Shown here: positions 4,147 to 23,164 of the stretch, one piece after another
Layout of the letters: every line of letters starts with the position of its first letter
How positions within the stretch are numbered: position 1 is the stretch's first letter
Assembly: GCA_044225505.1 (NCBI GenBank)
Contig: JBGAIN010000006.1
Location: forward strand, 1-64,000
DNA length: 64,000 nt
Source: Limisphaerales bacterium
GTDB lineage: Bacteria; Verrucomicrobiota; Verrucomicrobiia; Limisphaerales; SIBE01
Reading direction: 5' to 3'
Notes under the pieces: generated by a model
The model's database searches: none
Seen by the model: the letters and a program-made list of their open reading frames with translations, nothing else
What the model was told of the DNA's origin: nothing
Made by a program: the position numbers and the translations under genes

Positions 4147-5415
4147 ATGCGAACTGAACTCAAAGTCCCGGCAGTCGGCGAATCCATCACCGAGGTCGAA
4201 ATTGGCGACTGGCGGAAAAACCCAGGCGACTTGGTCCAAAAGGATGAGCCCCTCGTGGTTTTGGAAAGTGAGAAAGCGACTGTCGAATTGCCCTCTCCAA
4301 CGGCGGGCGTTTTGGTCGACTTGCTTAAAAAGAAAGGAGAGACCGCGCGTATCGGCGAAGTGATCGGGCATTTGGACGCAGCCTCCGCAACTCCGACCAG
4401 TTCTGCGGAGAAAAAATCGGCTGATCCTGTTCCGACTCCATCTCCGGCTCCGGCTGCCGATCCCGCTGCCCGGGTCATGCCCGCGGCGCAACGCGTTTTG
4501 GCCGAGCACGGCCTCAAAGCCCAGGATGTTCCCGCTTCGGGCCCTGGCGGACGCCTTTTGAAAGAAGATGTGCTTCGCCATTTGGAGGCCGTCCCCGTTC
4601 CAACCGAACGCAGTCTGCCTCCCAAGGTTCCCGCTCCTGAACCGCCCGCTGCTAAACCCTTGGCTTCTCCTGCACCACCCGTTTCAGATTCACGCTCTCG
4701 GACCAACACCACCGACCGTGCCGAGGAAGTTGTTCCCATGTCTCGCCTGCGGCGGACCGTTGCCGAACGCTTGGTCCAGGCTCAGCACAATGCTGCCCTT
4801 TTGACGACCTTCAACGAGATCGACATGTCTGCCGTTTCGGCCCTGCGCAAGGAGTCCGGCGAAGCGTTCCAAGCGCGTTATGGGGTCAAACTCGGCTTTA
4901 TGTCCTTTTTCGTAAAAGCGGTTACTGATGCATTGACGCTGGTTCCCCAGATCAATGCGTCCATTCGCGGACAAGAGATCGTCTACTACAAGTATTGCGA
5001 CATTGGTGTCGCCATCGGCGGCGGAAAAGGCTTGGTTGTCCCTGTCCTGCGCAACGCTGGCGTCATGAGCTTTGCCCAGATCGAACTGGTGATCGCCGAT
5101 TTCGCGAAACGGGCGCGTGAGAACAAGCTTTTGCCTGATGAACTGCAAGGCGGAACGTTCACGATCAGCAATGGCGGCGTTTACGGGTCTCTTCTGTCCA
5201 CTCCCATTGTCAACCCACCCCAGAGCGGCGTTCTTGGCATGCACACCATTCAAGAGCGGCCAGTGGCCCGGGAAGGGCAAGTGGTGATTCGTCCGATGAT
5301 GTACATCGCGCTGACTTACGATCATCGCCTGGTGGACGGTCGGGAAGCGGTAACCTTCCTCAAACGAGTTAAAGATGTGATCGAATCACCCGCGCGTTTG
5401 CTCCTCGGGATCTAG
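4147..5415 (+). CDS. sucB: Dihydrolipoamide succinyltransferase E2
   Basis: Lipoyl domain (ESEKA), E3-binding domain, [25 protein letters not shown]; follows sucA. Confidence 0.97.
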
Positions 5416-5859
5416 AGCAGTTGCTTCAATAGTCTCTGACGACTCTCCGGCGATCACACTGAGACGAAAGCAGCCTTGGTGCTTCGCGAGATTACTGAGC
5501 TCGGCGTTCGAGCACCGGTGCTCAGAACCGAGTCTCGTTGATAAGCCGATTAGGTGCAGCTTGTTAGACATTTCAGGACCGTTATCGCTGCGCAGCGTTC
5601 AACCGCTCCTTGAATCAGGGCGTAGTAAGGCTTCCAACGCTCAGATTCATGTAATCTGAACGGCGTGCACGGGAAAATTATTCCACCCATCGGAACTGCA
5701 CTCTACTTGTTTCAAGGTCTTGATTCGGCAGAAGCTCACACGAGGCGGGTCCAAGAGCTTTCTCTGGTTTGATAGAAGAATGGGCGATGCGTGATAAAGA
5801 CAAAACCGATCGACCATCCAAAACATTGGTGGTCTCCGTGCATGGGAAGTGAACGCGTG

Positions 5860-5885
5860 TGTAACTTCACGACTTGGACGGCGGA
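5860..5885 (+). promoter_or_regulatory. Putative ECF-type promoter TGTAAC-N15-GCGGA, copy 1
   Basis: tgtaac ttcacgacttggacg gcgga, ~75 nt upstream of ATG 5960; same motif and spacing at 8825 and 14795. Confidence 0.65.
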
Positions 5886-5959
5886 TGAAGAGGTGCTGCC
5901 GGGTCTGTCTACGATCTCACGGATCTGGACTCGGCGGGAAACCTATATCACCGACGACC

Positions 5960-8650
5960 ATGAAGAACTTGATACGCGCCTTGATCGCTCTCTGTGCCGG
6001 CACGATCGCCGCCCAAGCACATTTGCTCGAACGACGACCGAACGAATCGATCCTCCGCTGCGATGGCGCGCCGATCCGCCTGATCGGCTATGGAGATTAC
6101 GGAATTCTCACCGAGGCAGAGTTCGACTACACACGTTTCTTGGATGAGTTGGCGCGGCGGCGCTTGAACTTCTTCCGTGTTTGGATCAACTACCATTGGA
6201 CGAAGAGCTTATCGCCGTTCCTAAAACTGCCCGGCGGGAAGTTCGATCTGACCCGTTACGATCCCTCCTTTTTTGAGCGGTTGCGCAATCTGGCGCGCGC
6301 CGCGGACGAGCGCGGCATCATCATTCAAGTCTGCCTGTTCGACGGCGTGGGTCAGGAGGCGAACGATCCACTGCGCTGGTCACAGTCCCCGTATCATCCC
6401 GCCAACAACATTAATGGATTGAGTCAGAGCCCGAGCGACTACAGCAAGAAACCGTCGCTGCTTTGGGCTCAAGTTCAGATGCCGCTGGTTGATCGGGTCG
6501 TCTCCGAGCTTGGAAGTCTGGGTAACATCGTCTACGAAGTGTGCAACGAGCCCGCGTCTTCAGATCCCAGAGTTTCGCAAGAGTTCGTTGAATCGGTGGC
6601 GGCAAGGTTGCGTGCTAAACTAGCAGGACGTCCCGGGAGCCAAGTCATTTCTGTCAATGCGGATTCGGGTGCCTTGATTTCGTGGGCCCAAGGCAGCTCG
6701 GCGGTCGATCTCCTTTCGTTCCATGTCAACGACAAGGACGTTAAATTCGATCCGCGCGTGAACCTAAAGAAGCCCGCGATCATTAGCAATGACGGCGATA
6801 GCTCGCAAATGACGGCGGATTTTCAGGGTCTTGCTGCTGGACCGCGTCTGGCGCGCACACAGCAATTACTCGGACGTACCTTCAACACGTCGACCGTGCT
6901 CGGACATTCGCACTTCGAGTTTCTGGACAAGGGAATCAATGGCTCGAGCTGGAAATCGAAGAATTACAACCCACGCGCTACGTTGATCAACCGTTCGATC
7001 CTGGATGTTCTCGCCTCCTGGCTCGTAAGGCCTGGACCCACTGCGCCTGAATCGCCGGTGAACGGTATTCGCCTTAGCCGCCAGGGCCCTGACGTTCGTT
7101 ACGTAGACATGGTGACGGGACGCGTTCGGCTCCGGTTCGATACCTACTACGGCGGCGCGCCTCTGGAGTGGTACGTGAACCAAAACGGCCAAGAGACCGA
7201 GTTGCTTTCGCCGCCGCCGAAGGCCGGAACAGGCTTTCAGCTCGTTTATGAAACAGGTCAGGACGCGACGCAGGCGAGCGCAAATGGCATCACCCCGTTT
7301 CGCATCGCGCGGACGGTCGATCCGGTGGACGTCCTGAACCAGAACAATTACTACTGCCGAGAGGTGTTGCCTGCAGAATGGCCGAGCGGCTGCAATTACT
7401 ACCGGGTCGTTGGCTTTGCGCCTTTCTTTTGGGCGTCGCTCGATGCGATCGACGACGCCTACCCTCCATTCACGCGCTCATTGCCGGTGGGGATTGATCC
7501 GCATACTGAGCAAAGTGGCTGGATGACAAGTCGGCCGGGAATAGCGGATGCCGGCGTGCCTCTTTGGTTTCGGTCGCAGCCGGGCAAACCTGCTGGGATT
7601 GTGATGATCGGCAACGAAATGAAACCGGTGGGAAGTGCATCCTGGAACCGCCGCCTCCTGGAGATCCCGGAGGGCCGCTTCGCTTGCCGAATTCGGGTTG
7701 GCTTTGGCGAAACCACAGCAGGAGCGATTGCTGGAATCATGTTCCGTCGGCAGGTCCCAGTTCGTGAGGATGCAAACATCGATGATGCCTATGCGGCGCC
7801 GGGATACACCTTGTATGTAAACTACGCGGGCGACTTGGAGATCATCCGCGTACAGGGCGGGCAAGATCGAGTTTGGAAAGGCCAGTTGAGCAATGCGTCA
7901 CGAGCGCTGCTTCGGTCCGCGTCCGGGACGCAATTGGAGCTTCGAACACACAACGCCATGCCCGGTCGCGTCGAGATTTACGCGGACCACGTGGCCTTGG
8001 GTGTGTATAACGACCCACAACCTATTCTTGGGCCACATTTTGGGCTGTTCGCTACCGCGCCCGCCAACACGTTCATCCGGTTTGCAGAACGTGAGGTATT
8101 TGACGTGGGGACAGAGTTTCAGTCCACGGTCACCGCGCTGCCTGACGGCGTGCTGGAAACAGAGATGATCCTCCGACCGGCTCCGGGCGTGACTTCGAGC
8201 CGCTCGTACTACCGGGTCGTGAACAGTGCGTTCTTGAGCAGTCGGCCGGACTATCTCGCGCAGATAGCCACTGAATCCCCTGCCGGTCAGATACTAGCCG
8301 CCCGGACGGACGGCATGTTCGCGCCCCGGTTGTTGAGCTCGCAGGGCACGATCGTCTTTGGCCCGCCCGCGCCCGCCGACGCCTACGGCCTGTGGGTGGG
8401 GCAACCAGAGGGAAGTGTTGGACTTTACTGCGTCCCCATGGATGCGCAAATCGACGGAAGACCTGCGCCTGGTCCCCACGCGTTGTTGGGCTCGCATAAT
8501 GTCTGTTCGGGTTGTTCCGCGGTGCCTCATCCGGGTTCTATCTTGCATATCAATGCCTTGGACTTTTCAAACAATGCCACGCCACAGCCGGCGTCCAGCG
8601 TTCTCTTGCGCGCTCGCTGGGCGACACAACGCCTGCAGCCCGTGCGATGA
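5960..8650 (+). CDS. Secreted protein with N-terminal clan-A (GH5-like) TIM barrel and unknown beta-rich C-terminal domains
   Basis: Signal peptide MKNLIRALIALCAG...AQA; motifs FFRVW, FFERLR...ADERGIIIQVCLFD, YEVCNEP, SFH, KKPAII. Confidence 0.6.
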   Translation: MKNLIRALIALCAGTIAAQAHLLERRPNESILRCDGAPIRLIGYGDYGILTEAEFDYTRFLDELARRRLNFFRVWINYHWTKSLSPFLKLPGGKFDLTRYDPSFFERLRNLARAADERGIIIQVCLFDGVGQEANDPLRWSQSPYHPANNINGLSQSPSDYSKKPSLLWAQVQMPLVDRVVSELGSLGNIVYEVCNEPASSDPRVSQEFVESVAARLRAKLAGRPGSQVISVNADSGALISWAQGSSAVDLLSFHVNDKDVKFDPRVNLKKPAIISNDGDSSQMTADFQGLAAGPRLARTQQLLGRTFNTSTVLGHSHFEFLDKGINGSSWKSKNYNPRATLINRSILDVLASWLVRPGPTAPESPVNGIRLSRQGPDVRYVDMVTGRVRLRFDTYYGGAPLEWYVNQNGQETELLSPPPKAGTGFQLVYETGQDATQASANGITPFRIARTVDPVDVLNQNNYYCREVLPAEWPSGCNYYRVVGFAPFFWASLDAIDDAYPPFTRSLPVGIDPHTEQSGWMTSRPGIADAGVPLWFRSQPGKPAGIVMIGNEMKPVGSASWNRRLLEIPEGRFACRIRVGFGETTAGAIAGIMFRRQVPVREDANIDDAYAAPGYTLYVNYAGDLEIIRVQGGQDRVWKGQLSNASRALLRSASGTQLELRTHNAMPGRVEIYADHVALGVYNDPQPILGPHFGLFATAPANTFIRFAEREVFDVGTEFQSTVTALPDGVLETEMILRPAPGVTSSRSYYRVVNSAFLSSRPDYLAQIATESPAGQILAARTDGMFAPRLLSSQGTIVFGPPAPADAYGLWVGQPEGSVGLYCVPMDAQIDGRPAPGPHALLGSHNVCSGCSAVPHPGSILHINALDFSNNATPQPASSVLLRARWATQRLQPVR

Positions 8651-8704
8651 GCCTACCTGCTGAGCCGGACATGTAGAGACAGTCACAATCCGCTTGAGCC
8701 TTGT

Positions 8705-8745
8705 GAGGCTGCGTTCCTGAATGGGAGCCAGCCTCGCTTGCTTTT
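8705..8745 (+). terminator. Possible intrinsic terminator
   Basis: gaggctg...cagcctc stem (8705-8735) followed by T-rich gcttgctttt. Confidence 0.4.
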
Positions 8746-8824
8746 GATTTGATGCATCTGCGCGTGTTTTCGGTTGCCCGAGTCCTTGTAGCGGTTAGGG
8801 ACAGCGATTCATCGCGAACGCGTC

Positions 8825-8850
8825 TGTAACTTTGTCACACCGGTTGCGGA
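8825..8850 (+). promoter_or_regulatory. Putative ECF-type promoter TGTAAC-N15-GCGGA, copy 2
   Basis: tgtaac tttgtcacaccggtt gcgga; preceded by gaacgcgt as in copy 1; upstream of ATG 9025. Confidence 0.65.
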
Positions 8851-9024
8851 GAAGGGAGTGTTCCGGAATGGGGTTCAGCCAGTCACAAACGAGCCGTTCT
8901 CCAAACCGCTGGAATACGCTCCGAGACAGCGTTCCTGGCCAACCCGGCGACAAGTGAAGAGCGTCGGTGGTCAGCCCAATCACGGCGATGGAACTCGGCC
9001 CATCGCCTACTAACAAGCAACAAC

Positions 9025-9999
9025 ATGAACGATAGAACTATCCACAACGCGCGCAGAATCGGACTAGCCGCCCTGTGCGCACTTAACCTAGCCCTCGGCG
9101 CCAACCATGCGACGGCGGGAAACTCAAGCGTCGTTTTAAAGTCAAAAGCGAATGTGCCGTCATCGGAGCTCAAGTGGTGGAAGAGCCAGTCTGGCATTCT
9201 CGTGAACAATATCGACGCCCAGCTGCTCCTCGACTATCTCAATCACGACTCTAAGTGGCAGATAGGGCCACTGCAGCCCCGCGGGTTTAATTTTGTCCGG
9301 GATCAGGCAAGCCTGGAGAAGATTCTGGCGAAGGGAGTTGACGGGAATGCGGCATTTGGGGTGGCCACCAAAATTGACGTATTTCAAGACGGGCGCAGTC
9401 GAGGGAGCCGCTCCCTGACACCGTATGTGTTCGCGTGCCTGCCTTCACGGAATGCAAAAGGATACTCTGCGATTCTCGTCAGCGGACGAGATCTGAACAC
9501 CGGGTATTGGTGGACTCGCGCCATCGTCCTCGAAGGCGAAGACGGCAATCGCCTGAACATTCACGAATACGCCATTTGGGGCGGCAGTGTGACGCGTACG
9601 TCGTACAAAAAGGGCGAAACATTCTTGCTCCAGGCGATCACCACGGCGGCAGGCAAGACCAAGACGGCGTTCGAACGAGAAACGATGCCCCGTATGCAGC
9701 GCTCGCGCGACATGTTTCAGCAGGCCAAAGAGTTCTTGATTAATGACCCCAATTCGTCGGTGAACGTGAATTGCGCGAGTTCGTCTCAATTGGCGACCTC
9801 GAAGCAAGAGCCTTGGTGGAAGAAAATACTCAACCAAGCACTCCACGAGCTATGGAAAGCTTTGCAGGATTACGGCAAAAAGTTGCTGGATGACCTGTGG
9901 GAATACGTAAAAAACAACTTCGGCCCTCTCCGACAGCTGGGTGATTGGTTTTCCAGTTTGCTGGGAGGGATTCGTGATTGGTTTAAAGGACTGTTTTGA
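9025..9999 (+). CDS. Secreted hypothetical protein with Trp-rich amphipathic helical C-terminus
   Basis: Signal peptide ending ATA; C-terminus WWKKILNQALHELWKALQDYGKKLLDDLWEYVK...WFKGLF. Confidence 0.75.
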   Translation: MNDRTIHNARRIGLAALCALNLALGANHATAGNSSVVLKSKANVPSSELKWWKSQSGILVNNIDAQLLLDYLNHDSKWQIGPLQPRGFNFVRDQASLEKILAKGVDGNAAFGVATKIDVFQDGRSRGSRSLTPYVFACLPSRNAKGYSAILVSGRDLNTGYWWTRAIVLEGEDGNRLNIHEYAIWGGSVTRTSYKKGETFLLQAITTAAGKTKTAFERETMPRMQRSRDMFQQAKEFLINDPNSSVNVNCASSSQLATSKQEPWWKKILNQALHELWKALQDYGKKLLDDLWEYVKNNFGPLRQLGDWFSSLLGGIRDWFKGLF

Positions 10000-10009
10000 T
10001 AGGCCAAAT

Positions 10010-10038
10010 GTTCGGAGGGGCGTCGGGCCTCTCCGAAC
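10010..10038 (+). other. Intercistronic hairpin
   Basis: gttcggaggggc-gtcgg-gcctctccgaac, 12-bp stem with one G-U, weak U tract. Confidence 0.45.
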
Positions 10039-10059
10039 CTTCCACTTAATCTGATAGAT

Positions 10060-11142
10060 ATGAAAAATCCACGAAGAAGCAAAGTCGCGGTCGGGTCGTT
10101 CACTTTAATTGCCGCGACCTTGTGGTGGTGGTTTGGCGCATCGCATCCCGGAACGGTTCGAAGCAGTGATCCTGAAGCGAGACGGTCCATTGATCGCACC
10201 GCCGCTTCCCGCATGGAGACGCGATCCAGCGGGATGCTACGTCCTCAACTCAAGGAGGCCGAACCGCGCCGGGCTCGCTTCGAGCAGCTCCAAAATCAAG
10301 TGCAGCAACTTCGCACCAAGCCATTCTGGCAGCGCCGCTCTCTCGACGAGCGCATTGCATTGCGCGCCGCCGACGCCGAACTGCGTGAGCTAATGCACGA
10401 GCTCGGAGTCACTCCGGATCAGATGCCGTCTGGCGTCCTTGCCGACGAATTCGATTTCCTCGACCCGGCCCGTCGTGAGGCGATCGAACGGGCCGTTCCG
10501 GTCGAGTTGCGAGAAGCCATCACCCAATATGAGATTCGGGCGGCTCAAGGCTCGGTGGAGAGCGAGGATTACCATCAGTATGGAGATCATCTAAGGGCCA
10601 AGGAAGACCTGCTCTTGCAGAACCTGACCACCGCCGAGATGAGCGACTATATTGCGCGACATTCCGGAGAAGGAGATGCATTGCGTCTGCACGCCATCGA
10701 CTTGTCCGAGGATGAATTTCGCGCCGTTGCCACCATTGAATGGCAGTTCAATCGCGAGGCGGAGCGCTCGGGGGCGAGCGATCTGGATTCCGTGAGGCGA
10801 ACGCGGGACACAGCCCTGCAACGAGCCTTGGGTGGTCGCCTCGCGCTCTATGAACGGTCCGAAGACCCGACGTATGCCGGGCATATTGACGCGGGTACGG
10901 ACCTAGGCTTACCTCGAGATCTGAGCGACTGGATCTACGACGTCCAGCACTGGGTAGATGAATCCGAGAGCCACATGGCCGATGCTGGGGTACTCTCGGA
11001 GGCCGAACGAACGGAACAATTGCGTTCAATGATGGGTGAGGCGCGTTCGGCCCTGCGGGCTGAGTTGGGCGCGAGCTTTGAGCGTTGGGCAACCACCCCG
11101 AGCGCAGCATGGTTGAGCCGCTTTGACTCCTCCCAAGAATGA
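10060..11142 (+). CDS. N-terminally anchored all-alpha hypothetical protein (lipase-chaperone-like architecture)
   Basis: Single N-terminal hydrophobic segment, low-complexity linker, acidic helical body with repeated (A/E)LG motifs. Confidence 0.65.
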   Translation: MKNPRRSKVAVGSFTLIAATLWWWFGASHPGTVRSSDPEARRSIDRTAASRMETRSSGMLRPQLKEAEPRRARFEQLQNQVQQLRTKPFWQRRSLDERIALRAADAELRELMHELGVTPDQMPSGVLADEFDFLDPARREAIERAVPVELREAITQYEIRAAQGSVESEDYHQYGDHLRAKEDLLLQNLTTAEMSDYIARHSGEGDALRLHAIDLSEDEFRAVATIEWQFNREAERSGASDLDSVRRTRDTALQRALGGRLALYERSEDPTYAGHIDAGTDLGLPRDLSDWIYDVQHWVDESESHMADAGVLSEAERTEQLRSMMGEARSALRAELGASFERWATTPSAAWLSRFDSSQE

Positions 11143-11153
11143 TGCGGGCAGCG

Positions 11154-14100
11154 TCATTGGGCGCGGGCGCGATAGAACCGTTGCTGATCGGCGACACCTT
11201 GCGGGTCGGGCCATTCCAGTCCGGCTGAGGAAAGAGAATTCGTCCAGACTGGGTTCCAGCTCTGTAAATCAGCTGAACTCTGGACGACCACCTGGCCTAT
11301 GGCTGGCCCGCTCACGCGGAGTTGGAAGTTGGCGTCGCGCCCGCGTCCGAAAACCAGGCGCAGTTCGCCATCGTCCGTTACGAGGTTAGCGTTTAGAACG
11401 ATCTGACCTTGCGCGTCGCCAGCCCCCATTACGGCGATGAGATAAGTCGTGTCCCGGTTCACCCGCGCCCGGACTGCGTTGCTGCGACGGGCATCGCCCC
11501 CGCAGCTCTCTGCGACAGGAACTCGGCGCTCCGGATAGGCGTAGAGCGCCATGGCTGTCTCGATGGAGCTCCCTTGGTTATCCAAAACCAAAACGCCATC
11601 GGTGCGGACGCGCAAGCCCAGCCAAAGTGAGCCGCGGCCGATCTTGCACCCATGCAGCGGTTCCCCTGGCTCCGTGCTGGCGCCCGTGTTATCCAGGACA
11701 TGCCGGGCTGGTTCACCCATCGCCACGCTGAGGAACGGGTTACCCAAGGCTTGCAGTCCTGGCCTGGCGCTTGACAAGCCGAGCGCGATCAAAAGGTCGC
11801 CGAGCTTGTCGTAGGACAAGGCTGTATCCGTGGCACTCAATTCGAGGCTGGCGGGCAGGCTATCCACCGTCCGGCCTGCGGCATTACGAACGCGAACCCT
11901 GTAAACCCCTACGTCCGCCGGGCTCGCGGAGGTGCGGGTCAACGTGGGCAACGTTTCGCCAGACAACGGTTGACCGTTGCGGAACCATTCGTAAGTCAAG
12001 TCTGTGCCTTCCGCTTGCACTTGAAAGCTCACGCTTGCTCCAGGCGCCACCGTTTGGCTTTGGGGATGAAAGCGGATGACCGGGATTTGCACTGCGGTGG
12101 TTTCGAGAGACCAGCTCAACACCAGTTGGCCGCTTGCGCCAAGGAATCCATCAACGACGATATGATAAACCGTTCCAGCGACGGCATTGAACTGAAGTTG
12201 GCTCGTCAGGAATCCGCCGCGATCCTCGTCGCTGGCAATCTCTACGAGGCTAGAAATATTCGGTCCCGTGTAGACAGCCAGTAACGTGTCAAACGCGCTG
12301 CCTCGAGTATCAAAGGTGGCGACGCCATCGGCCGGGGCCTGCCAGTCGATCCACATTGACTTGCCTCCAGGTTTTGTGGCGTGAACACCTTCGTTCGCTT
12401 CGCGCGTCGCTTGAAGGTTGTTCGTGCTCCCAGTGCCCGTTGGGCTCGTGATAAGACCACGGTTGGCGAATTGGTCTGTCAGGAGTAAGGCCGGAAGTAA
12501 AACCTGGAGAACCGCTGGATCGCTTTCTACCGCGCCAGCGTCGTTGGCTACGGCCAAACTGTAGCTACCACCATCCCCGGCTTGTACGCTGCTCAAACTT
12601 AGCGTCGGATTAGTCTCGCCCTCGAGATTGACACCGTTCTTGCGCCACTGATAGCGCAAGGTCGGCGAGCCGACCGCTCCGGCACGAAATTCGGCGGCGG
12701 TCCCGGGAGCGGCCTGCATCGGTTCGGGTTGGGCTGAAATCAACGGCGGACTCGGCAGCGCTACCAAGACCGCGCGGGAGAATTCGGAGGTGCTACCGTC
12801 CGGCGCTGTCGCTGTCGCCGTGACCCAATTACCCGCGGACAATTCGACTTTAGACTGAAACTCGAAAGTATCACCGTTGGCAGTATCCACACCGAGTTCA
12901 CCCAGGTAAACCTGGCCTTCGCCAAAGCCCGTCGTGTCGCGATTAGTGCTGGCGAAGAACTCGAGGTGGTAAGTTAGGCCTGCCGTGCTTACCATGCGGC
13001 CGGTAATGATGCTTGGGCGCGCGGCGTAAGCGCCGCTGAGCGTTGGGAAATTCTGCAGGCCGTTCGGGCCGCTGTCGGCATCCTCGGAGTCGTTTTGTGT
13101 GACACCAGCGGGTCCGAGATCAATCCCCAGGCCCGTATTCGAATAAATAGCATTCTGGGCGATGCGGTGTCCTTTGCCGCCGATGATTCTTACCCCTGCG
13201 CCTTGATTAAAGGCAATGCGGTTTGCGGTCCCGATGAAATTGTTGGTGTTCGCATCGCTGCCTACGAAAATGGCGTCGGACGTGTTTCCCAGCGGCAGAA
13301 TACCGGTGACATCGATTCCGAAATCGTTCCCGGTCACGACATTACCGCCTAGAGTATTCCCGAGGACCAGCCCTGGGCCATTATTTCCGGAAATCTGGTT
13401 TGATCGAATGATATTGTTGCGCGCGCTGCTCTGGATGACTACGCCTTTCTGCCCATTCGGAACCCGAGATGATCCGGATGAATCTGTGCCGATCCTGTTA
13501 CTTTCCAGGGTGTTTTCAAACGCCGTATTATCGATGCTGACGCCACCCTCAACGTTGCCGGAGACGACGTTGCTCTGGGCGAGGTTGAGTGAAGCACCTC
13601 CACCGATGCGCAATCCCAGATTCTCCAGACCGCCAGCCAGTCCATTGCCAAGTGCACTTTGTCCGGAACTACTGATGCCGATCCAGTTGCCGATGACTCG
13701 ATTCGAGATCGAACCGTTCCCCCAAATCATCAGACCATCGTTATCGTTCCCGGAAATGATGTTTCTCGCTTCGGGTTCGATTCCTCCGATGGTATTCCAT
13801 TTGCAATCTCGAAGCGTCACGGCCGCATTAAGCCGGTTCGTTGTTGCGGAGCTGTTGGGAAGCCGTTCGGTTCCCGTCGCACCCACACCGATCAGGTTGC
13901 CTGCCACACGGTTGGAGACTGCAGACGACGATTGTATGCTTATAGCAATACTCTTGTTTCCAGAAATTAGATTGCCACTGCCTGGAAAGATTCCACCGAT
14001 GTCATTATCCGACGCTAACAAGTTGAGTTCTACACCAGTATCGTTCCCCAAGGGTTTCGTTCCGGATGGGTCCGTGCCGATGTAGTTACCGATAATCGTA

Positions 14101-14714
14101 TTCTGTACGGCGCCCTTTGGCGAAATCCCTATCACGAGGATGCCCGAACGAGCATTTCCCGATATGATATTCCGGGCGGACGGCGTCAAACCACCCACGC
14201 GATTGCCTGCGGATGCAGACAGATTAATTCCGGCGATGCCATTGGGACGGGCGACGGTCCCACTTGGGTCCAGGCCGACATAATTGGCTTCGATGACGTT
14301 GGAGTCGCTGGAAAGGAGGAGGCCAGTGTCGCCGAATCCCCCAACCGCAAGCCCGCGTATGGTGCAGCCGGCGGCCGTGATCCAGAACCCCTTACCGAAC
14401 GGTCCCGCCTTAGTCCCGTCGAGTTCAATTAAGGGCGCACCCGCATACCCTGGTTGAGTTGTGCCATCGATGACCACTGCGTCCGTAACTTGATTAAATG
14501 TTGTGAACGGTTGAATCGTGTAAGGCCCCGGCTCGGGAATGGCAAAGGCGATTGTATCCAAGCCGGAGGTAGAATTGGCGTCGTCGATCGCCTGGCGCAG
14601 GGTTCCGGGGCCGGAATCGGAAGTGTTCGTGACCGTGAAGACTGCGGCGGTAAGCGTCAGTTGACTCAAGAGCACACCCCATCCTAACGCGATAACAAAG
14701 AGGATTCTTCCCAT
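11154..14714 (-). CDS. Large secreted beta-helix protein with Ig and PPC-like domains
   Basis: Signal peptide from MGRILFVIALG; FTVTNTSDSGPGTLRQAI start; repeated GNxIGxDxxG / NIISGN coils; YQWRKNG Ig domains; FDTLLAVYTG; C-terminal SADLQSW...RFYR. Confidence 0.85.
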   Translation of the reverse strand: MGRILFVIALGWGVLLSQLTLTAAVFTVTNTSDSGPGTLRQAIDDANSTSGLDTIAFAIPEPGPYTIQPFTTFNQVTDAVVIDGTTQPGYAGAPLIELDGTKAGPFGKGFWITAAGCTIRGLAVGGFGDTGLLLSSDSNVIEANYVGLDPSGTVARPNGIAGINLSASAGNRVGGLTPSARNIISGNARSGILVIGISPKGAVQNTIIGNYIGTDPSGTKPLGNDTGVELNLLASDNDIGGIFPGSGNLISGNKSIAISIQSSSAVSNRVAGNLIGVGATGTERLPNSSATTNRLNAAVTLRDCKWNTIGGIEPEARNIISGNDNDGLMIWGNGSISNRVIGNWIGISSSGQSALGNGLAGGLENLGLRIGGGASLNLAQSNVVSGNVEGGVSIDNTAFENTLESNRIGTDSSGSSRVPNGQKGVVIQSSARNNIIRSNQISGNNGPGLVLGNTLGGNVVTGNDFGIDVTGILPLGNTSDAIFVGSDANTNNFIGTANRIAFNQGAGVRIIGGKGHRIAQNAIYSNTGLGIDLGPAGVTQNDSEDADSGPNGLQNFPTLSGAYAARPSIITGRMVSTAGLTYHLEFFASTNRDTTGFGEGQVYLGELGVDTANGDTFEFQSKVELSAGNWVTATATAPDGSTSEFSRAVLVALPSPPLISAQPEPMQAAPGTAAEFRAGAVGSPTLRYQWRKNGVNLEGETNPTLSLSSVQAGDGGSYSLAVANDAGAVESDPAVLQVLLPALLLTDQFANRGLITSPTGTGSTNNLQATREANEGVHATKPGGKSMWIDWQAPADGVATFDTRGSAFDTLLAVYTGPNISSLVEIASDEDRGGFLTSQLQFNAVAGTVYHIVVDGFLGASGQLVLSWSLETTAVQIPVIRFHPQSQTVAPGASVSFQVQAEGTDLTYEWFRNGQPLSGETLPTLTRTSASPADVGVYRVRVRNAAGRTVDSLPASLELSATDTALSYDKLGDLLIALGLSSARPGLQALGNPFLSVAMGEPARHVLDNTGASTEPGEPLHGCKIGRGSLWLGLRVRTDGVLVLDNQGSSIETAMALYAYPERRVPVAESCGGDARRSNAVRARVNRDTTYLIAVMGAGDAQGQIVLNANLVTDDGELRLVFGRGRDANFQLRVSGPAIGQVVVQSSADLQSWNPVWTNSLSSAGLEWPDPQGVADQQRFYRARAQ

Positions 14715-14794
14715 AAAATTGCCCACGTGCGGCGGTGAGGTTAGTAGATCGGGCTTTGATTGCAAGCCGGGACGCCGAGGGAACATGACCCACA

Positions 14795-14820
14795 TGTAAC
14801 CTTGGGCGGCTGACTGCGGA
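14795..14820 (+). promoter_or_regulatory. Putative ECF-type promoter TGTAAC-N15-GCGGA, copy 3
   Basis: tgtaac cttgggcggctgact gcgga, ~60 nt upstream of ATG 14879. Confidence 0.65.
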
Positions 14821-14878
14821 TTAGGAGTGTCCGGACGTTGTGCCGGCGCTGAAAGAACATCAACAACCATCGAAACGC

Positions 14879-16390
14879 ATGAAATCAATTCGCTATCTAC
14901 TCCTTACGGCCATGGCTATTTCGCCACTGGTTCGCGGCCAAGTCAGCACCAGCTTCGACTCGTATCCTTCCCTGGACGGTGAGTCCGTACGGGGCTCCGG
15001 TGAAGCTGCCTACGCCAAACCAGCCTGGTGGTCATGGACAGCCCCCGCGACCGGAAAGGTCGTCATTAGTACGGAAGGCAGTGATTTCAACACTTACCTG
15101 GGTGTTTACATCGGTGACTCCACCGACCATCTCGATGCAGTCGCTGCCAACGAGGACACAGAGGGAATGCCTTGGTCGCAGGTCGAATTCCAGGCAAATC
15201 AGGGCACGGTGTATCGCCTTGGGGTATTCGCTCGACTCGGTTTTGCCGGCCAAGCCGTTGCGAATGTGCAATTATCCCCAAATCGATCCCCAGGATCGGT
15301 GGTCGGAGGGGACGATTTCCAAAACCGCCGGGAGTTGAGTGGCACGAACGCGTTGGGGCTGGCCAACAACTTCTACGCGACGCGTCAGAACGCCGAACCT
15401 CCGAGTGGTGGCCGGGGTGAAACCGTTTGGTGGACTTGGACCGCCCCGGCCGATGGCGTGGTGGAAATTGACACTGCTGGCAGCGAGGTGAACACGGTAT
15501 TGAAGGTGTTCGTCGGTGACCAGTTGAACACCTTGCAGGCCATCCGTTGGAACAACGACGTTCCGGGAGCGTCGCACTCGCGAGTTCTATTCCAGGCCCA
15601 GAAAGGGATCACGTATCAAATCTGCGTCGATACGCCTTCGATCACTTTCCCCGGCGGCAATATTCTGCTGCACGTTGCTTTGACCCAGAACGATCTTCCA
15701 GGTGGCGCGCCTGGAATGGACAATTTCAACGCCCGCGGCGAGCTCGTCGGAGCTGAGGCGATTGGCTGCGGTAATATTGATGGCGCCACGTTTCAACCGG
15801 GCGAACCGATCATTGGTGACCGGGAAACCATCTGGTGGCAATGGACCGCTCCAGTTGATGGGCAGGTGGTGATTGATACCGTGGGCAGCGAGTGTGATAC
15901 CTTGCTTGCGATCTATACCGGTGATCAAATCGAGGCCCTTCGCCCCGTGACATCGAACGACAATGCAGACGGCGAATGGACTTCGCGCGTGCAATTTGCG
16001 GCGCGGCGCAATCAACGTTACCAGATTGCAGTGGCCTCGGCACGGGCCATCCGTGTGGACATCGGAAATGTGGTGCTCAATGTGCACCAGCAAGTCGCAC
16101 CTGACGAAGCGCTGCAGGTGTTTCGAGCCGTTGAAGTGGAATTGTTCGCCCGTAAAGGTGTCCGGTACCAGCTGCAGCGGTCCAAAGACTTCATCCTCTG
16201 GACGAACATCGGTGGGCCGTTCGTCGGCCAGGATCGCGTCATGAAATGCCTCGTCTCGATTCGTGAAACCGACGGCAACTTCTTTCGGGCAAAGGAGCTT
16301 GCAACGACTGACATGACTGAGGGCGAATTACCGTCGTCGTCCACGCCCGATTCCTTCGGAAATCTGCCGACGGTTTTCCCTGGCGAATAG
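14879..16390 (+). CDS. Secreted protein with three tandem PPC-like beta-sandwich repeats
   Basis: Signal peptide MKSIRYLLL; three WWxWTAPxxGxVxIxTxGSxxxTxLxxxxGD repeats; C-terminal SKDFILW...FFR. Confidence 0.8.
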   Translation: MKSIRYLLLTAMAISPLVRGQVSTSFDSYPSLDGESVRGSGEAAYAKPAWWSWTAPATGKVVISTEGSDFNTYLGVYIGDSTDHLDAVAANEDTEGMPWSQVEFQANQGTVYRLGVFARLGFAGQAVANVQLSPNRSPGSVVGGDDFQNRRELSGTNALGLANNFYATRQNAEPPSGGRGETVWWTWTAPADGVVEIDTAGSEVNTVLKVFVGDQLNTLQAIRWNNDVPGASHSRVLFQAQKGITYQICVDTPSITFPGGNILLHVALTQNDLPGGAPGMDNFNARGELVGAEAIGCGNIDGATFQPGEPIIGDRETIWWQWTAPVDGQVVIDTVGSECDTLLAIYTGDQIEALRPVTSNDNADGEWTSRVQFAARRNQRYQIAVASARAIRVDIGNVVLNVHQQVAPDEALQVFRAVEVELFARKGVRYQLQRSKDFILWTNIGGPFVGQDRVMKCLVSIRETDGNFFRAKELATTDMTEGELPSSSTPDSFGNLPTVFPGE

Positions 16391-16432
16391 AGTTGGCTGG
16401 CAACAATCGGTATCAGGCGCGTGGTTGGTTGA

Positions 16433-16463
16433 TTCGGATGCCGGCGACGGTTCGGCATCCGAA
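16433..16463 (+). terminator. Perfect 11-bp hairpin after the PPC-repeat gene
   Basis: ttcggatgccg-gcgacggtt-cggcatccgaa. Confidence 0.45.
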
Positions 16464-16600
16464 CACGCTTTGAGAGAGAGCGTGAATTTGCTTTAGTTGC
16501 TTGCTGCTCGTCGGACGCTCCGTTATTAACGCCGCACTCCGGTATGCTTCAGGGTCGACGAAAACAGTCCGCACGCCGTGGCGTTTTTCCGACGAGTCAC

Positions 16601-19600
16601 ATGCTCGTCCGGCTGTGCGTTTGGATGCTGTTGACCATGGGGGCTCGACTCGACGCCGCGGAGACTGCGGAACAGGTAGTACTGATGAGTAGCGATGGGA
16701 CGGTGGAAGTGTTGCCGCAAGGCGCGGTAATCTGGCAGGCCGCTCGCGTGAATGCCCCGTTACACCCGGGCGATCGGGTGCGCACCGGTGAAAACAGCCG
16801 GGCCATGTTGCGATATGGCGAACGCACTCAGGTCCAACTTGGAGAGTTTAGCGAGACAGTCATTCTCCTACCGACGCAAGGACAGGGTTTTTTGAACATG
16901 ATCAAAGGCTGGTTACACTTGCTCCATCGTGGCCGACCTGGGCGCTATGAACTCCAGATCCCAACTGCTCAAGCGATCATCCTCGGAACAGAGTTTACCG
17001 TTTACGTTGCCCCTAACGGGTCCACTCGGATCGACCTTTTAGAAGGAGACGTCCAACTCGGCAATGCGTATGGAAAGATTCGCTTGAGCTCGGGGACAAG
17101 TGCGCAGGTCGATGCCGAGACGGCGCCGAGACCGATCCAGTTCGCTGGACGAATGCGGGCAGTGGAATGGTGCCTTTACTATCCGGCTATTCTTGATCTG
17201 AGCGAGCTGGACGAACTTCTCGAGCGACATCCGGAACTGAGGCCTTCCGTAGAGCATTATCGTGTTGGTGATGCGTTGGCCGCGATTCATTCGTTTCCTT
17301 GGGATGCGCCAAGTCAAAGCGCAGCCGAACGGCTCTACCGCGCTGCGCTCCGCGTGGCCGCTGGGCACTCTGGCAAAGCCATGGACGAGTTAGGATTGCT
17401 AGAAACGGGCGCTGCCGCACGCGCCGGCCGCTTTCTTGGTCCAATTAATGGCTTGAAGCTTCTTGTCGCCACCGTGCAATCAGAAGATCGCCCAGCCGCG
17501 CTTTCCGATCGTGCGTTAAGGCAGTCCACAACATATCTCCTCGCGGAATCTTTCTACCATCAGGCGCATCTGAATTTCGACGCGGCACGCGCCTCAGTGC
17601 GAACGGCACTCGCCAAGAATCCGAACTTCGCGGCGGCTTGGGCGCGTCTGGCAGAACTCGAGTTTTGCGTCGGGAGAATCCCTTCGGCACGCGCAGCCGT
17701 GCGTGAAGCACTGCGGCTCGCTCCGCGAAACTCGGGCGCACTCGTGACGTCTGGTTTCCTAGCTGGAGCCAGGAGTCAAACAGCACTCGCCCAAACGCAA
17801 TTCGAAGAAGCGATTCAGTTGGATCCGCGAAACGGCAACGCCTGGTTGGGACATGGATTAATGCTCATCAAGTCCGGCCGCCGCGCGGAGGGGGTTAAAG
17901 ACTTGCAGGCAGCCGCCGCTTTGGAACCGCTACGCAGCTTGTTCCGAAGTTACTTGGGAAAAGGCTATGCTGATCAGGAGGAGTGGGCTAACGCCGAGCG
18001 CGAATTGACACAAGCCGAAACCCTGGATCCACAAGATCCAACGCCATGGCTTTACTCTGCTTTGCTGCATCGGCAAGCGAACCAGCTCAACCGCGCGCTT
18101 GAGGATTTGGAGCGTTCCCGAGCGCTTAACCAGAATCGTCAGATATTTCGATCCCAGTTACTGCTCGATCAGGACGCATCCGTTCGCGGAACGGATCTCG
18201 CCGGGATTTACCAGGATGTCGGACTATTTGACCGCAGCCTGGCGGAGGCAAGCCAGGCATTGACGATCGACTACGCCAACTATTCCGCACACTTATTGTT
18301 GGCGGAAAGTTACAACGCTTGGCGCGATCCGAATCAGGTAAATTTACGTTACGAAACGCCGGCAGTGCATGAGTTTTTATTGGCGAACCTTCTCGCACCG
18401 CCTGGGGCATTGACCTTCTCGCCCCAAATCTCGCAAAACGAATACACCCGCTTTTTCGATAGAAACCGCTTGGGAATCAATACTCGCACGGAGTATCTAA
18501 GCTCCGGCACCTGGCGCCAGGAAAGCGCTCAGTACGGGGTCTTTGACAGTTCCGCGTATGCTGTGGAGTCAATCTATTATTCACGCAATGGGCAGCGAGC
18601 TAACAACGACTTCGAGGCATGGGCCTTGAACTTCCGGCTCAAACAGCAGCTCACATTACAGGACAGCGTCTATCTGCAGGTAACCCGCTACGAAGCCGAT
18701 GGCGGCGATGTTCGTCCTCTGTTTCAGGAAGGATTAGCAAGTCCATCTCTGCGCGTTTCGGAACGACAAGACCCGCTGTTTCTGGTCGGATATAACCACG
18801 CCTGGTCCGCTGCGGCACACACACTGCTCTTGTTTGGTCACCTCGAAGACCGAGTCACCCGGCGCGACCGGAACGCCCAAGTGGACGTGCTGGACCGCGA
18901 CCCTTTCGACCCCGCGGCAGGAATTCGCAACGTGGACCGTATCCCCGTAACGCTCGACTACTCCGGCTGGAATCGATTGAACTCGATTGAGGTCCAGCAG
19001 GTGCAATCGTTCGGGAATCATTCGTTTACCGCTGGCACCGCGCTACAGCATCAGGCGTTATCCGCGAGTGGCCAGGTTCGCGACGGCGCCTCGTCTTTGG
19101 GAACACCGATTGACAGCCGTGACGATGGTGAGGCCGAGGGCAGCCGAATCGGCACCTATGCATTCTGGCGATGGCACATGACTCCGCGCTTCCATACAGT
19201 TGCTGGTGTTTCTTTCGATTGGCTCCAGTTTCCGGAGAACCTCGGAAGCGTCCCATTTTCGACCAAGCTGCGTGAGGACGCGAGCTTTTCCCCGAAAGCC
19301 GGCCTTTTGTGGAGCGTCACCGACGACTTGCTTTGGCGGTTGGCCGGAGCGCAGTCTCTAAGCGGGATTGGTGTTGAGCAAAGTCTTGGGTTGGAACCCG
19401 TCGACGTGGCGGGTTTCTTAGATAATACCCGCAATTTAATTCCTGAGTCGGTTGTCGGCTCGACCTCTGCCCTGGAGACGCGGGTGGCAGGATCCGCCAT
19501 GGATTGGCGGCCACTTCCGCATACCTATTTGAGCATTGCGGTGGAGGTCCGCACTGCGACTGGCGATCGATCTCTGCCCGCCTATGAGGAGGTCATTCCC

Positions 19601-20119
19601 GTCGGAGGCTTGGGAACTCCCTCACTCGTGCCCGTGTCGTTTCGGGATCGCATTCGATTTGAAGAACAGATCGTTCGCGCGTCGGCTAGCCAGCTGCTAG
19701 GCAGTAGCGGCTCGATTGGAATCGATTATCGTTGGAGTCGCGCGCGCCTTGCTTGGGAATATCCCGATACCGCAAGCGACGCGTCCTTTCCCGGAACAGA
19801 GTCGCGAAAGAACCACCGGGAATCGTCCCTGCACCGCTTCGGGGCCTGGTTTCAGTATCAGAATGCACAAGGTTGGTTTGGTCGAGTCCAGCCCGCCTGG
19901 TACTTCCACACCAATCGGGACTACGTCCCTGCAATAGGTAGCGATACGTTCTGGCAGATTGACGTCTGGGCGGGCCGGCGGCTTTTCCACCGCCACTTAG
20001 AGCTTGCGGTCGGTGTCTTGAACTTGACGGGCGACTCGTTTCACTTGAATCCGATGGTGCTTCAAACGGATTTGCCCAAGGAGCGAACCTTCGCCATGAT
20101 CTGCCGATTTAATTTCTAA
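16601..20119 (+). CDS. FecR domain + TPR repeats + TonB-dependent-receptor-like outer membrane beta-barrel
   Basis: FecR motifs GDRVRTGENSRA and TAQAIILGTEF; TPR region; alternating beta-strands; NLT motif and terminal Phe (MICRFNF). Start could be 16544. Confidence 0.85.
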   Translation: MLVRLCVWMLLTMGARLDAAETAEQVVLMSSDGTVEVLPQGAVIWQAARVNAPLHPGDRVRTGENSRAMLRYGERTQVQLGEFSETVILLPTQGQGFLNMIKGWLHLLHRGRPGRYELQIPTAQAIILGTEFTVYVAPNGSTRIDLLEGDVQLGNAYGKIRLSSGTSAQVDAETAPRPIQFAGRMRAVEWCLYYPAILDLSELDELLERHPELRPSVEHYRVGDALAAIHSFPWDAPSQSAAERLYRAALRVAAGHSGKAMDELGLLETGAAARAGRFLGPINGLKLLVATVQSEDRPAALSDRALRQSTTYLLAESFYHQAHLNFDAARASVRTALAKNPNFAAAWARLAELEFCVGRIPSARAAVREALRLAPRNSGALVTSGFLAGARSQTALAQTQFEEAIQLDPRNGNAWLGHGLMLIKSGRRAEGVKDLQAAAALEPLRSLFRSYLGKGYADQEEWANAERELTQAETLDPQDPTPWLYSALLHRQANQLNRALEDLERSRALNQNRQIFRSQLLLDQDASVRGTDLAGIYQDVGLFDRSLAEASQALTIDYANYSAHLLLAESYNAWRDPNQVNLRYETPAVHEFLLANLLAPPGALTFSPQISQNEYTRFFDRNRLGINTRTEYLSSGTWRQESAQYGVFDSSAYAVESIYYSRNGQRANNDFEAWALNFRLKQQLTLQDSVYLQVTRYEADGGDVRPLFQEGLASPSLRVSERQDPLFLVGYNHAWSAAAHTLLLFGHLEDRVTRRDRNAQVDVLDRDPFDPAAGIRNVDRIPVTLDYSGWNRLNSIEVQQVQSFGNHSFTAGTALQHQALSASGQVRDGASSLGTPIDSRDDGEAEGSRIGTYAFWRWHMTPRFHTVAGVSFDWLQFPENLGSVPFSTKLREDASFSPKAGLLWSVTDDLLWRLAGAQSLSGIGVEQSLGLEPVDVAGFLDNTRNLIPESVVGSTSALETRVAGSAMDWRPLPHTYLSIAVEVRTATGDRSLPAYEEVIPVGGLGTPSLVPVSFRDRIRFEEQIVRASASQLLGSSGSIGIDYRWSRARLAWEYPDTASDASFPGTESRKNHRESSLHRFGAWFQYQNAQGWFGRVQPAWYFHTNRDYVPAIGSDTFWQIDVWAGRRLFHRHLELAVGVLNLTGDSFHLNPMVLQTDLPKERTFAMICRFNF

Positions 20120-20121
20120 AG

Positions 20122-22095
20122 GTGCGGCCTGAGACACAACTTCGGCGTGGAGTGCAGCGGGGTCTCCGTTGGTTCGTGCCGAGTCTGTCTATCGCTATCG
20201 CTTGGATTGCGCTCCTTTCTCCTTTGGGTCGGTGGTCAGACAATATCAGCTACGACATTCTCTTTGCGTTCTACGGCCCTCAACATCGGGACGATGCGGC
20301 GTTGGTCTATATGGATTACGAATCCGCACGTCAGTTGGGTCAGCCAGATTCCGGCCGTTACGATCGCGCGGTGCATGCTAAACTGATCGATAAACTTTCA
20401 GGTCTGGGAGCTAAGGCAATCGTTTTCGATGCGCTTTTCGAGCATCCGGACACCAACAATCCGGCATCTGATCAAGCGCTTATCGACGCCGCTCAACGAC
20501 AGAGGTTCGTCTTCGCCGGGGCCGTTCAGCGCCGAGGCAATTACTCGCTATTACCCGCGGCCAAGGTTGTTCCGCCATTTCCGGAACTGCGGCGCGCGTT
20601 GGCGGGATATGGATTAGTTGAGGGCAATTTGGAAGGGGAACCAATTCGGGACATGACAACGGACCTGGCCGCGGTGTCCAGCCTGGCGAACGTCGTCGCG
20701 GATGCCTTTTCTCCAATCCCTGTGATACTCCAACGAGAGCGATCACCCCGGCTGAACTACTATGGCGCTCCGTTGCAGGCGATTCCTGGATACCGCTACT
20801 TCGACGTACTAACAAACCGGCTCGAACTCCGTGGCGCCTTCTCAAATCGCGTCGTTTTTGTGGGTCAGAATTCGGTGGAGAATCTGGATTCGTCGCCTGA
20901 TCGCGATCTGCATCCCACGCCGTTTACTCGGTGGACGGGCTTGAGAGCTCCAGGTGTCGAGATTAATGCGACCGCGTTCCTGAACCTGGTCCACCATGAG
21001 TGGCTTCGCCGAGGGCATCCACTCGCCGAGGCCATTGCGTTGGTGGTCACCGGCTTGGTCACGGGTCTGGCCCCGGCACCGCGGCGATTCAAAACGGGAG
21101 TTCTTTTACTTGGGCTGTCAATTTGCTCGATAGCTTGGGTGGCGTGGATTCTGGCCTGGCGATGGCATATCTGGGCGCCCTGGCTAATTCCCATTGTCTT
21201 TCAAGTTCCGGTGGGAGTCGCCGCTCTGTTATTACAGCGATCGCGCGAGGGGCAGTCCGATGTGGTGCCCTTGCGTCGGGAGTTTAAAACAGAACCGTGG
21301 TCAATTCCCGACCACGAGTTGGTGCGAAAAATTGGTACTGGTGGCTATGGCGACGTCTGGCTCGCACGCAACGCGCTGGGCGGTTTCCATGCCGTCAAGA
21401 TCGTAGAGCGGAGTCGGTTTTCCGGGCCGGATCCATACGAGCGCGAGTTTAACGGCGTCCGAAATTTCATGCCAATCTCGCGCGGCCATCCGGGATGGGT
21501 GCCGATACTTCATGTAGGGCGAAATGATCTGGCTAGCGGCTACTTCTATTACGTGATGGAACTTGCCGATTCGAAGGCGGAAAAGCTCGACGTCGAAACC
21601 TACGAACCGAAGACGCTGTCTAGCGCGGACTATGGTCAGAGTCCTGCCTCACCCTTACAAATCGCCCGGATTGGCCTCGAGTTGGCGGAAGCACTCCAAT
21701 ACCTCCACCAACACGGCTTGGTCCATCGGGACGTGAAACCAAGCAACGTTCTTTTCTGGCGGGGAAGTCCGCGTTTTGCCGACATTGGTCTTGTCACACA
21801 ATTCGCGAGAACTGGCCGAGACGTTAGTTTTGTGGGAACAGCCGGGTTTGTGGCACCGGAGGGTCCCGGAACGCCTGGCGGGGATGTATTTGGGTTAGGT
21901 AAGTTACTGCAATCTCTCCAAACTGATCGCCTCGTGTCGGATAGCCAGCACTTGGACGAAACATCGGCTCGCCAGCAACAGCGGCTTAGCACGATTTTGC
22001 AGAAAGCAACCGCTATGGATCCTGATCGCCGATACGCCTCCGCTGCTGCCCTGGCGCAGAGTCTTAACGAGTTACTCAAGGATTCTCTTTTCTGA
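20122..22095 (+). CDS. CHASE2 sensor domain + 3 TM helices + Ser/Thr protein kinase
   Basis: RAVHAKLIDKL...AKAIVFDALF, DLHPTPF, PGVEINAT (CHASE2); kinase IGTGGYG, AVK, HRDVKPSN, DIG, APE; 2 nt after the FecR gene. Confidence 0.9.
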   Translation: MRPETQLRRGVQRGLRWFVPSLSIAIAWIALLSPLGRWSDNISYDILFAFYGPQHRDDAALVYMDYESARQLGQPDSGRYDRAVHAKLIDKLSGLGAKAIVFDALFEHPDTNNPASDQALIDAAQRQRFVFAGAVQRRGNYSLLPAAKVVPPFPELRRALAGYGLVEGNLEGEPIRDMTTDLAAVSSLANVVADAFSPIPVILQRERSPRLNYYGAPLQAIPGYRYFDVLTNRLELRGAFSNRVVFVGQNSVENLDSSPDRDLHPTPFTRWTGLRAPGVEINATAFLNLVHHEWLRRGHPLAEAIALVVTGLVTGLAPAPRRFKTGVLLLGLSICSIAWVAWILAWRWHIWAPWLIPIVFQVPVGVAALLLQRSREGQSDVVPLRREFKTEPWSIPDHELVRKIGTGGYGDVWLARNALGGFHAVKIVERSRFSGPDPYEREFNGVRNFMPISRGHPGWVPILHVGRNDLASGYFYYVMELADSKAEKLDVETYEPKTLSSADYGQSPASPLQIARIGLELAEALQYLHQHGLVHRDVKPSNVLFWRGSPRFADIGLVTQFARTGRDVSFVGTAGFVAPEGPGTPGGDVFGLGKLLQSLQTDRLVSDSQHLDETSARQQQRLSTILQKATAMDPDRRYASAAALAQSLNELLKDSLF

Positions 22096-23146: not shown

Positions 23147-23164
23147 ATCCGACAACGTCGACCA

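Follow-up and report, generated by a model that had tools for sequence, protein, structure and literature searches.

What reads a promoter-like motif that occurs three times, and only locally, in a bacterial genome? The question is raised by a 64,000-nucleotide (nt) stretch of DNA (hereafter the window; positions 1 to 64,000 of contig JBGAIN010000006.1, assembly GCA_044225505.1, a Limisphaerales bacterium), in which the bipartite motif TGTAAC-N15-GCGGA precedes three different genes, the products of which are probably exported proteins judging by their sequences. We argue that these sites are very probably promoters of the extracytoplasmic function (ECF) type, read by an ECF sigma factor encoded in the same insert (the island sigma). 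The features at the centre of this argument are as follows.

5860 to 5895, plus strand: site 1, with a −35 element TGTAAC at 5860-5865, a −10 element GCGGA..A at 5881-5888 and a predicted transcription start (+1) at G5895.
8825 to 8860, plus strand: site 2, laid out as site 1, with predicted +1 at G8860.
14795 to 14829, plus strand: site 3, laid out as site 1, with predicted +1 at G14829.
5416 to 24088, no strand assigned: insert between sucB and lpdA, holding all three sites and the sigma gene.
23165 to 23881 (start may be 23938), minus strand: ECF sigma of the kinase-linked KRGGG family, the proposed reader.

The first-pass annotation had reported exact sense-oriented copies at 5860-5885, 8825-8850 and 14795-14820, and these were recovered as claimed on the plus strand, ending 74, 174 and 58 nt ahead of the ATGs at 5960, 9025 and 14879, respectively. 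None of 100 dinucleotide shuffles gave three copies (shuffle mean 0.02). The columns invariant among the sites are TGTAAC, a T two places on, GCGGA, and an A three places beyond it. Also as described earlier, all three sites are followed by a tail of the form GRRGTG..CCGG, in which GRRGTG follows at a distance of 3-4 nt, and sites 1 and 2 alone are preceded by GAACGCGT (at 5851-5858 and 8816-8823). Two further claims stood in part. The spacers are unrelated overall, but a Y-T step right after TGTAAC is common to the sites. The sites are intergenic for the chosen gene starts, but this status hangs on that choice, as both site 1 and site 3 fall in open frames that extend upstream of the chosen ATG (at 5960 for site 1, and at 14717 on the minus strand for site 3).

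If offset 24 (counting the first base of TGTAAC as zero) is −11, as the residue roles given by Todor et al. imply (PMC7776599), then the conserved A is −7 and offset 35 is +1. Transcription is thus predicted to begin ~10 nt past GCGGA, on the TG of the tail. Offset 35 is the G of this TG at 5895 and 8860, and at site 3 the G lies one base earlier, at 14829. The tail would accordingly comprise a discriminator (the purine run) and a pyrimidine-purine start with TG as −1/+1. The GAACGCGT element, for which the sigma model gives no account, is possibly an upstream element or the site of a second regulator.

The rarity of the motif needs a stricter measure than the one first offered, because the expectation of 0.03 occurrences for an 11-bp pattern fails by itself once its post-hoc choice is counted. 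Of 79 other windows of the genome, 77 contain some 6-N(12-19)-5 triplet with unrelated spacers in what was loosely classed as non-coding DNA, and the studied window contains 27 triplets of any kind. When triplets had to lie within 10 kb, in sense orientation, and 30-300 nt ahead of three different genes, 11 triplets at four loci remained in 7.19 Mb; only the studied locus has the shared tail, and the other three resemble inverted or tandem repeats. Across the 9.04-Mb assembly (95% complete) the exact motif has four copies, against a chance background of ~3 per spacer length. The fourth (C27:2773) is without tail and inside a called open reading frame, and the motif with tail has three copies, all in the insert. 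The genome-wide scan that had been proposed to define the regulon was run with a matrix built from the three sites; it returned these (scores 27.6-28.0) but no wider regulon, the next-best scores being at most 20.6 and mostly in coding sequence. As the three sites are all that the assembly holds, the regulon is local and a genome-wide scan adds nothing to it. In the order as a whole, the motif with tail is present in one of 401 genomes, the studied one. The core motif without tail gave 44 matches in 43 of the 400 other genomes, with a reversed control, judged by eye, at least as frequent; 43 of these matches were examined in context, and six were promoter-like, three had a family sigma in the stretch and one combined both. 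Predictions of sigma-70 promoters and terminators stood at shuffle level.

This genome encodes 38 kinase-linked (ECF62-like) paralogues, the island sigma among them. To these, 60 of ~88 listed loci from 11 relatives were added, chiefly the better-scoring ones on longer contigs, and the resulting family set has 101 distinct sigmas, with a kinase gene next in 65. GTAAC occurs within −15 to +65 of the sigma stop codon at 21 of 96 loci, compared with seven in antisense and one in a shifted window, which supports the earlier view that the AAC at −35 befits an ECF promoter. Upstream of the sigma gene this half is at background (14 of 97 sense, 15 antisense). As GTAAC is enriched behind the sigma gene and not ahead of it, the family site precedes the kinase and nearby targets rather than the sigma. 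The lack of a motif copy upstream of the island sigma gene, noted at first pass and confirmed here, is thus the family norm and not a weakness; an autoregulatory copy is in any case not required of ECFs.

The second half of the site is where the paralogues differ. Specificity in ECF sigmas has been attributed to the residues equivalent to RpoE N84, which acts at −12/−13, N80, one of those that read −11T, and S172, which acts at −34 (PMC7776599). Choosing one site per sigma by its −35 half alone, which 54 of 97 sigmas passed, we found that the −10 bases of the 54 sites co-vary with region 2.4 residues of the neighbouring sigma. The RpoE numbers of the family positions, which were placed via alignment to SigE of M. 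tuberculosis, are those that we take to apply. At offset 24 the N80 equivalent pairs Asn with T (10/10), Tyr with G (5/5), Arg with A (5/6) and His with C (18/32; p=0.0005), and at offset 22 the N84 equivalent pairs Asp with C (14/19) and Asn with T (10/22; p=0.0025), both p-values being overstated, as they treat related sigmas as independent. At offsets 2-3, Val at the S172 equivalent goes with A in 20 of 31 cases and Met in none of seven. Two or three sites are present at each of 11 other loci (26 sites in all, some of which are probably noise); there, offsets 20-28 are more alike within loci (0.51 identical) than between them (0.34; p=0.0004), and the sister sigmas C62 and L123, from two genomes, have an AGCA-type −10 in common. 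From these sequences, the 38 paralogues appear to be kept apart by differing second halves of the motif.

At the S172, N80 and N84 equivalents the island sigma has Val, Asp and Asp; each of the three sites has the A at offset 3 and the C at offset 22 that Val and the second Asp would predict. Only two of the 101 sigmas, and none of 117 database homologues, carry Asp at the N80 equivalent. The other bearer, G002:C20 of a congener genome, emerged from a blind search, as it is the one core-motif match among the 43 that is both promoter-like and beside a family sigma. It has one site between sigma and kinase and another before the first target, both with the island type of −10, and the −10 nonamer of site 2 is that of both. 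The two sigmas are only 38% identical, and a quick tree, in which 49 of 98 branches stayed unresolved, does not make them sisters. Among the 101 loci, promoter-position GCGGA..A sites are confined to the island and G002:C20; a GCGGA match close to the C97 sigma falls within a gene and was set aside. Further relatives of the G002:C20 sigma were absent at E≤1e-75 from the 400 other genomes. The earlier proposal of the 23165-23881 sigma as the likely reader thus gains support from the residue-base co-variation and from a second Asp-type sigma, together with the bipartite −35/−10 layout, fixed spacing and sense orientation before genes. Since the motif with tail occurs in a single genome and no database relative of the island sigma exceeds 50% identity, a private motif is matched by a private sigma.

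Sites and sigma share one piece of DNA: sucB ends at 5415 and lpdA starts at 24089. Five relative genomes were searched; a close sucB match was absent in two, and in all three where both genes were found (G001, G002, G004) they are adjacent, with gaps of 20, 42 and 132 nt. The 18.7 kb between them in the studied genome is thus an insert. Its other genes are listed below.

5960 to 8650, plus strand: target 1, 896 residues, N-terminal part related to GH5-like/DUF6298 proteins.
9025 to 9999, plus strand: target 2, 324 residues, without match in family and relative searches.
10060 to 11142, plus strand: 360-residue gene, 60 nt after target 2, without family match.
11154 to 14717, minus strand: divergent gene for a beta-helix/Ig/PPC-like exported protein.
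14879 to 16390, plus strand: target 3, 503 residues, PPC-type repeats.
16544 to 20119, plus strand: FecR-TPR-beta-barrel protein, NsrA-like.
20122 to 22095, plus strand: membrane CHASE2 Ser/Thr kinase.
22076 to 23155, minus strand: zinc-ribbon Ser/Thr kinase, 359 residues, following the sigma gene.

The C-terminal part of target 1 has no match among the 400 other genomes of the order. The 360-residue gene is likely co-transcribed with target 2, and the barrel gene is possibly read through from site 3, a path that a hairpin at 16464-16484 may terminate. No motif was found on the strand of the divergent gene, and no anti-sigma gene is encoded in the insert. Signal peptides of the three target products were judged by eye only; a 19-residue hydrophobicity scan gave no segment in them. 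The barrel protein is likened to NsrA by the domain order that we take NsrA to have, and not by direct sequence comparison.

In three public runs from a single study (run X1 giving short pieces only), contigs are 99.9% identical to the window over the insert and ~90% identical left of 5787. This step between ~90% (5000-5786) and 99.9% identity lies 74 nt before site 1 and, on the sequence evidence, is a recombination breakpoint; it indicates that the insert with site 1 is common to lineages with differing flanks. Site 1 gives no footprint in the second strain, since the divergence stops at 5786. One 3,054-nt contig has four differences, all in site 3 and none in a box: substitutions at 14807 and 14811 (spacer) and at 14821, and one base added after 14823, which makes the box-to-tail spacing equal to that of sites 1 and 2. 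This pattern fits, weakly, selection on the boxes. The four differences cluster in 17 nt (14807-14823), a pattern that might also come from recombination over a short tract, from conversion with site 2 as donor or from faulty assembly.

Several observations weigh against assigning the sites to the island sigma. The choice of sites by the −35 half passes 24 of 97 loci in the antisense control, so that perhaps 40% of the 54 sites are noise, and this adds to the overstated p-values. At the multi-site loci the spacers too are closer within than between loci (0.39 versus 0.29, p=0.001), and local ancestry or composition therefore contributes to the within-locus −10 signal. The link between Asp and GCGGA, though specific, comes from one independent locus only, and neither the barrel gene nor the short kinase was found to have a site immediately ahead of it. 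The sigma itself departs from its family at 21 conserved positions (including F7, T10, W12, W37, Q59, F81 and W141); the top Foldseek rows for its predicted model are ECF sigmas, none reaching E≤0.001. It retains the DAED motif, so an EcfP-type activation mechanism is not directly transferable to it. Its kinase has no membrane helix or hydrophobic segment and no WD40 sensor, and ends before the membrane helix; most family kinases exceed 1,000 residues and have WD40 repeats, which were present in both paralogue kinases scanned. The Lys of its catalytic loop is replaced by Thr, as in two of 65 family kinases. With truncated kinase, altered catalytic loop and substituted sigma, the pair could be decaying.

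Taken to its end, such decay would make the sites relics of a once-working module, the sigma-kinase pair being inactive and kept because the insert is young. The truncation, the Lys-to-Thr change, the 21 substitutions and a long tree branch all point this way. We nevertheless consider it very improbable, as all frames are open, the substitutions in the sigma are mostly hydrophobic-for-hydrophobic or Thr-to-Ser, the base-reading residues match the sites, the boxes are intact where the spacers have diverged, and the insert is conserved in the second strain. The predicted sigma model has an intact, two-domain, all-helical fold, and a confident one (predicted local distance difference test score, pLDDT, 81). 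An impaired island sigma would also leave room for a different ECF as reader, such as C134 (V/Y/D at the three positions), a C186-type sigma (M/Y/D) or an unrelated sigma that recognizes GTAAC. Tyr at the N80 equivalent pairs with G at offset 24 as well, the C186 site has a −10 near that of the island, the ECF-like genes C149 and C234 of this genome have TGTAAC upstream, and ECF16 promoters use GTAAC (PMC3420878). But the own site of C134 differs at three of the five GCGGA positions, and that of C186 has a different −35 and offset 21. With no further island-type site at a promoter position in the genome, another reader would be without a matching target at home, and the sites came in one insert with an Asp-type sigma; we therefore hold this explanation to be unlikely, if less so than that of relics. 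Least credible of all is that the element is no promoter: it might be an operator at which some other regulator binds, a hairpin in an RNA leader, a repeat that was duplicated, or mere chance. It is true that sigma binding accounts neither for GAACGCGT at two sites nor for the downstream CCGG palindromes, that each site allows a stem of 5-6 bp to be drawn and that bare triplets are common. Yet folding is no better than in shuffles (z-scores −1.4, 0.2 and −0.2), whereby the hairpin leader was rejected; no repeat extends past the boxes; the arrangement is unique under the strict post-hoc control; and its register is that of family sites whose bases track the sigma residues.

If the island sigma reads the sites, the three promoters and the sigma at the far end of the insert would form a self-contained regulon of probably exported proteins. 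Region 4 of the sigma would bind TGTAAC, which is common to many paralogues, and the Asp/Asp pair of region 2.4 would read GCGGA..A, private to this sigma, by contacting the C at ~−13 and, at −11, the second base of GG. What activates the sigma is more weakly inferred. It may be switched on by Ser/Thr phosphorylation, with the signal entering through the barrel protein and the CHASE2 kinase, a route suggested by the absence of a sensor from the sigma's own kinase. Transcription from site 3 may extend to these two genes and so close a feedback loop. The N-terminus of the island sigma has Arg, Leu, Arg and a hydrophobic residue as in a CHASE2-associated ECF subfamily, unlike its own family, and Ser10 replaces the Thr found in 97 of 100 family members. 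In relatives, 40 barrel loci were surveyed: a CHASE2 gene is present in 26, a kinase in four, an ECF of the other subfamily in six, and relatives of target 3 or of the divergent gene in 17. These partners and the N-terminal likeness favour input via barrel and CHASE2 kinase, and from sequence the chances of this against a decaying or differently controlled pair are perhaps even. No GTAAC-type site before barrel or neighbouring genes is apparent among the matches listed for these 40 loci, and no shared motif was seen by eye in the six loci with the other ECF subfamily.

A bolder and rather doubtful reading makes the insert a re-wired signalling unit, in which an NsrA-like barrel and a CHASE2 kinase have been linked up with a sigma whose kinase has lost its sensor. 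The coupling might run through a two-kinase relay or through direct phosphorylation at Ser10, with the sensor operon driven from site 3. Across the family, dozens of paralogues would then feed back on their kinases and not on themselves, insulated by a two-residue −10 code.

Some related observations are recorded here. By eye, the outputs of the CHASE2 partners of the barrel are interchangeable in relatives (L023-L062), most being cyclase-like, some PAS-containing and a few Ser/Thr kinase plus ECF. A second barrel locus in the studied genome (C222:16700-43000, in part L016), beside nitrogenase genes, has two sigma-kinase pairs of the family at its flanks, with a separate set of sites for each pair (three CCGT-type and two TGTG-type), and a family-type site directly before the barrel gene. 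At C222:197840-199728, an ECF of the CHASE2-kinase-associated subfamily lies directly upstream of a KRGGG-family sigma. An imperfect inverted repeat at 23960-23990, upstream of the island sigma gene in the divergent gap with lpdA, is a possible operator or hairpin. Outside the insert, a SigW-like ECF (28993-29646), followed by an RDD/bactofilin-like membrane protein, has GTAAC 98 nt upstream with a differing −10. Two 157-nt direct repeats (34308-34639; 98% identical, 175 nt apart), each with TGTAAC, sit upstream of the end region of the gene 37136-34710, and an 11-nt tandem array lies at 34015-34069.

Small, linked and transferable ECF regulons are established (PMC7776599). The local regulons of Todor et al. 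resemble the present one in having at most three linked promoters, a patchy distribution and transfer of sigma with regulon, and their code likewise places specificity in the RpoE N80/N84/S172-equivalent residues (PMC7776599). The promoters from which their code was derived are autoregulatory and stand upstream of sigma genes, whereas the family of the island sigma has its site after the sigma gene and ahead of the kinase or, as here, at targets only. By gene context the closest group is ECF62, a likeness drawn from the published description; an NCBIfam scan gave the island sigma weak generic ECF matches only. ECF62 has a kinase with an N-terminal zinc finger at +1, WD40 repeats in typical paralogues and no anti-sigma (PMC7826278). 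At the island a kinase with an N-terminal zinc finger is likewise at +1, and a zinc ribbon is present in 60 of 65 family kinases, but the island kinase is without the one membrane helix and the usual WD40 repeats. By its description, ECF62 occurs in Planctomycetes alone (100%) and its target promoters are 'not conserved' (PMC7826278), whereas the present family has Verrucomicrobia homologues (those of the island sigma are labelled Verrucomicrobia and Opitutus), a conserved −35 and a sigma-specific −10.

Other known systems match in single respects. The ECF43 pairs EcfP/PknT and EcfK/PknS also place an ECF beside a Ser/Thr kinase with no anti-sigma, but there DAED is replaced and the sigma phosphorylated (PMC8999054). 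As the island sigma keeps DAED, with no uncharged S/T motif in its place, membership of ECF43 was rejected, and activation site and mechanism must differ. The ECF16 promoter of B. japonicum EcfF, tGTAACc-N16-CGAA, has the same −35 hexamer but another −10, autoregulation and an OsrA-type anti-sigma (PMC3420878); the island, lacking a CGAA-like −10, autoregulation and a six-helix anti-sigma at +1, was not assigned to this group. GTAAC is also known as a −35 element from SigD. ECF267, with FecR-TPR proteins without an outer-membrane transporter in Sorangium/Chondromyces, was likewise dismissed, since FecR-TPR is here fused to a barrel. NsrA-CyaK of Sinorhizobium meliloti sets an outer-membrane barrel beside a CHASE2 membrane protein, as here, but its output is cAMP and Clr (PMC13001267); the CHASE2 protein of the insert has a kinase domain instead of a nucleotide cyclase, with a sigma as further output component. 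We found no publication on the promoter or code of the family; the available excerpts of PMC7671368 and PMC8103513 contain nothing on the motif, and the supplements of Jogler 2012, Wiegand 2020, Garnerone 2018 and Iyer 2020 may hold it.

The linked small ECF regulon is thus already known as a concept, and what the present work adds, for a large and unstudied family of kinase-linked sigmas, is a promoter, its uncommon position and a code linking residues to bases. Kinase-linked ECF groups of the ECF62 type have had no accepted target promoter, and the placement behind the sigma gene supplies one. The three sites offer a defined read-out for the unstudied barrel/CHASE2-kinase pathway. Whether many ECFs of the same group in one genome are redundant or specialised is a question that has been posed (PMC7826278). 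Two residues predict much of the −10 box, which would make the regulon of each paralogue predictable, and if the re-wired, insulated arrangement is true, the paralogues would constitute a ready set of orthogonal, phosphorylation-gated promoters.

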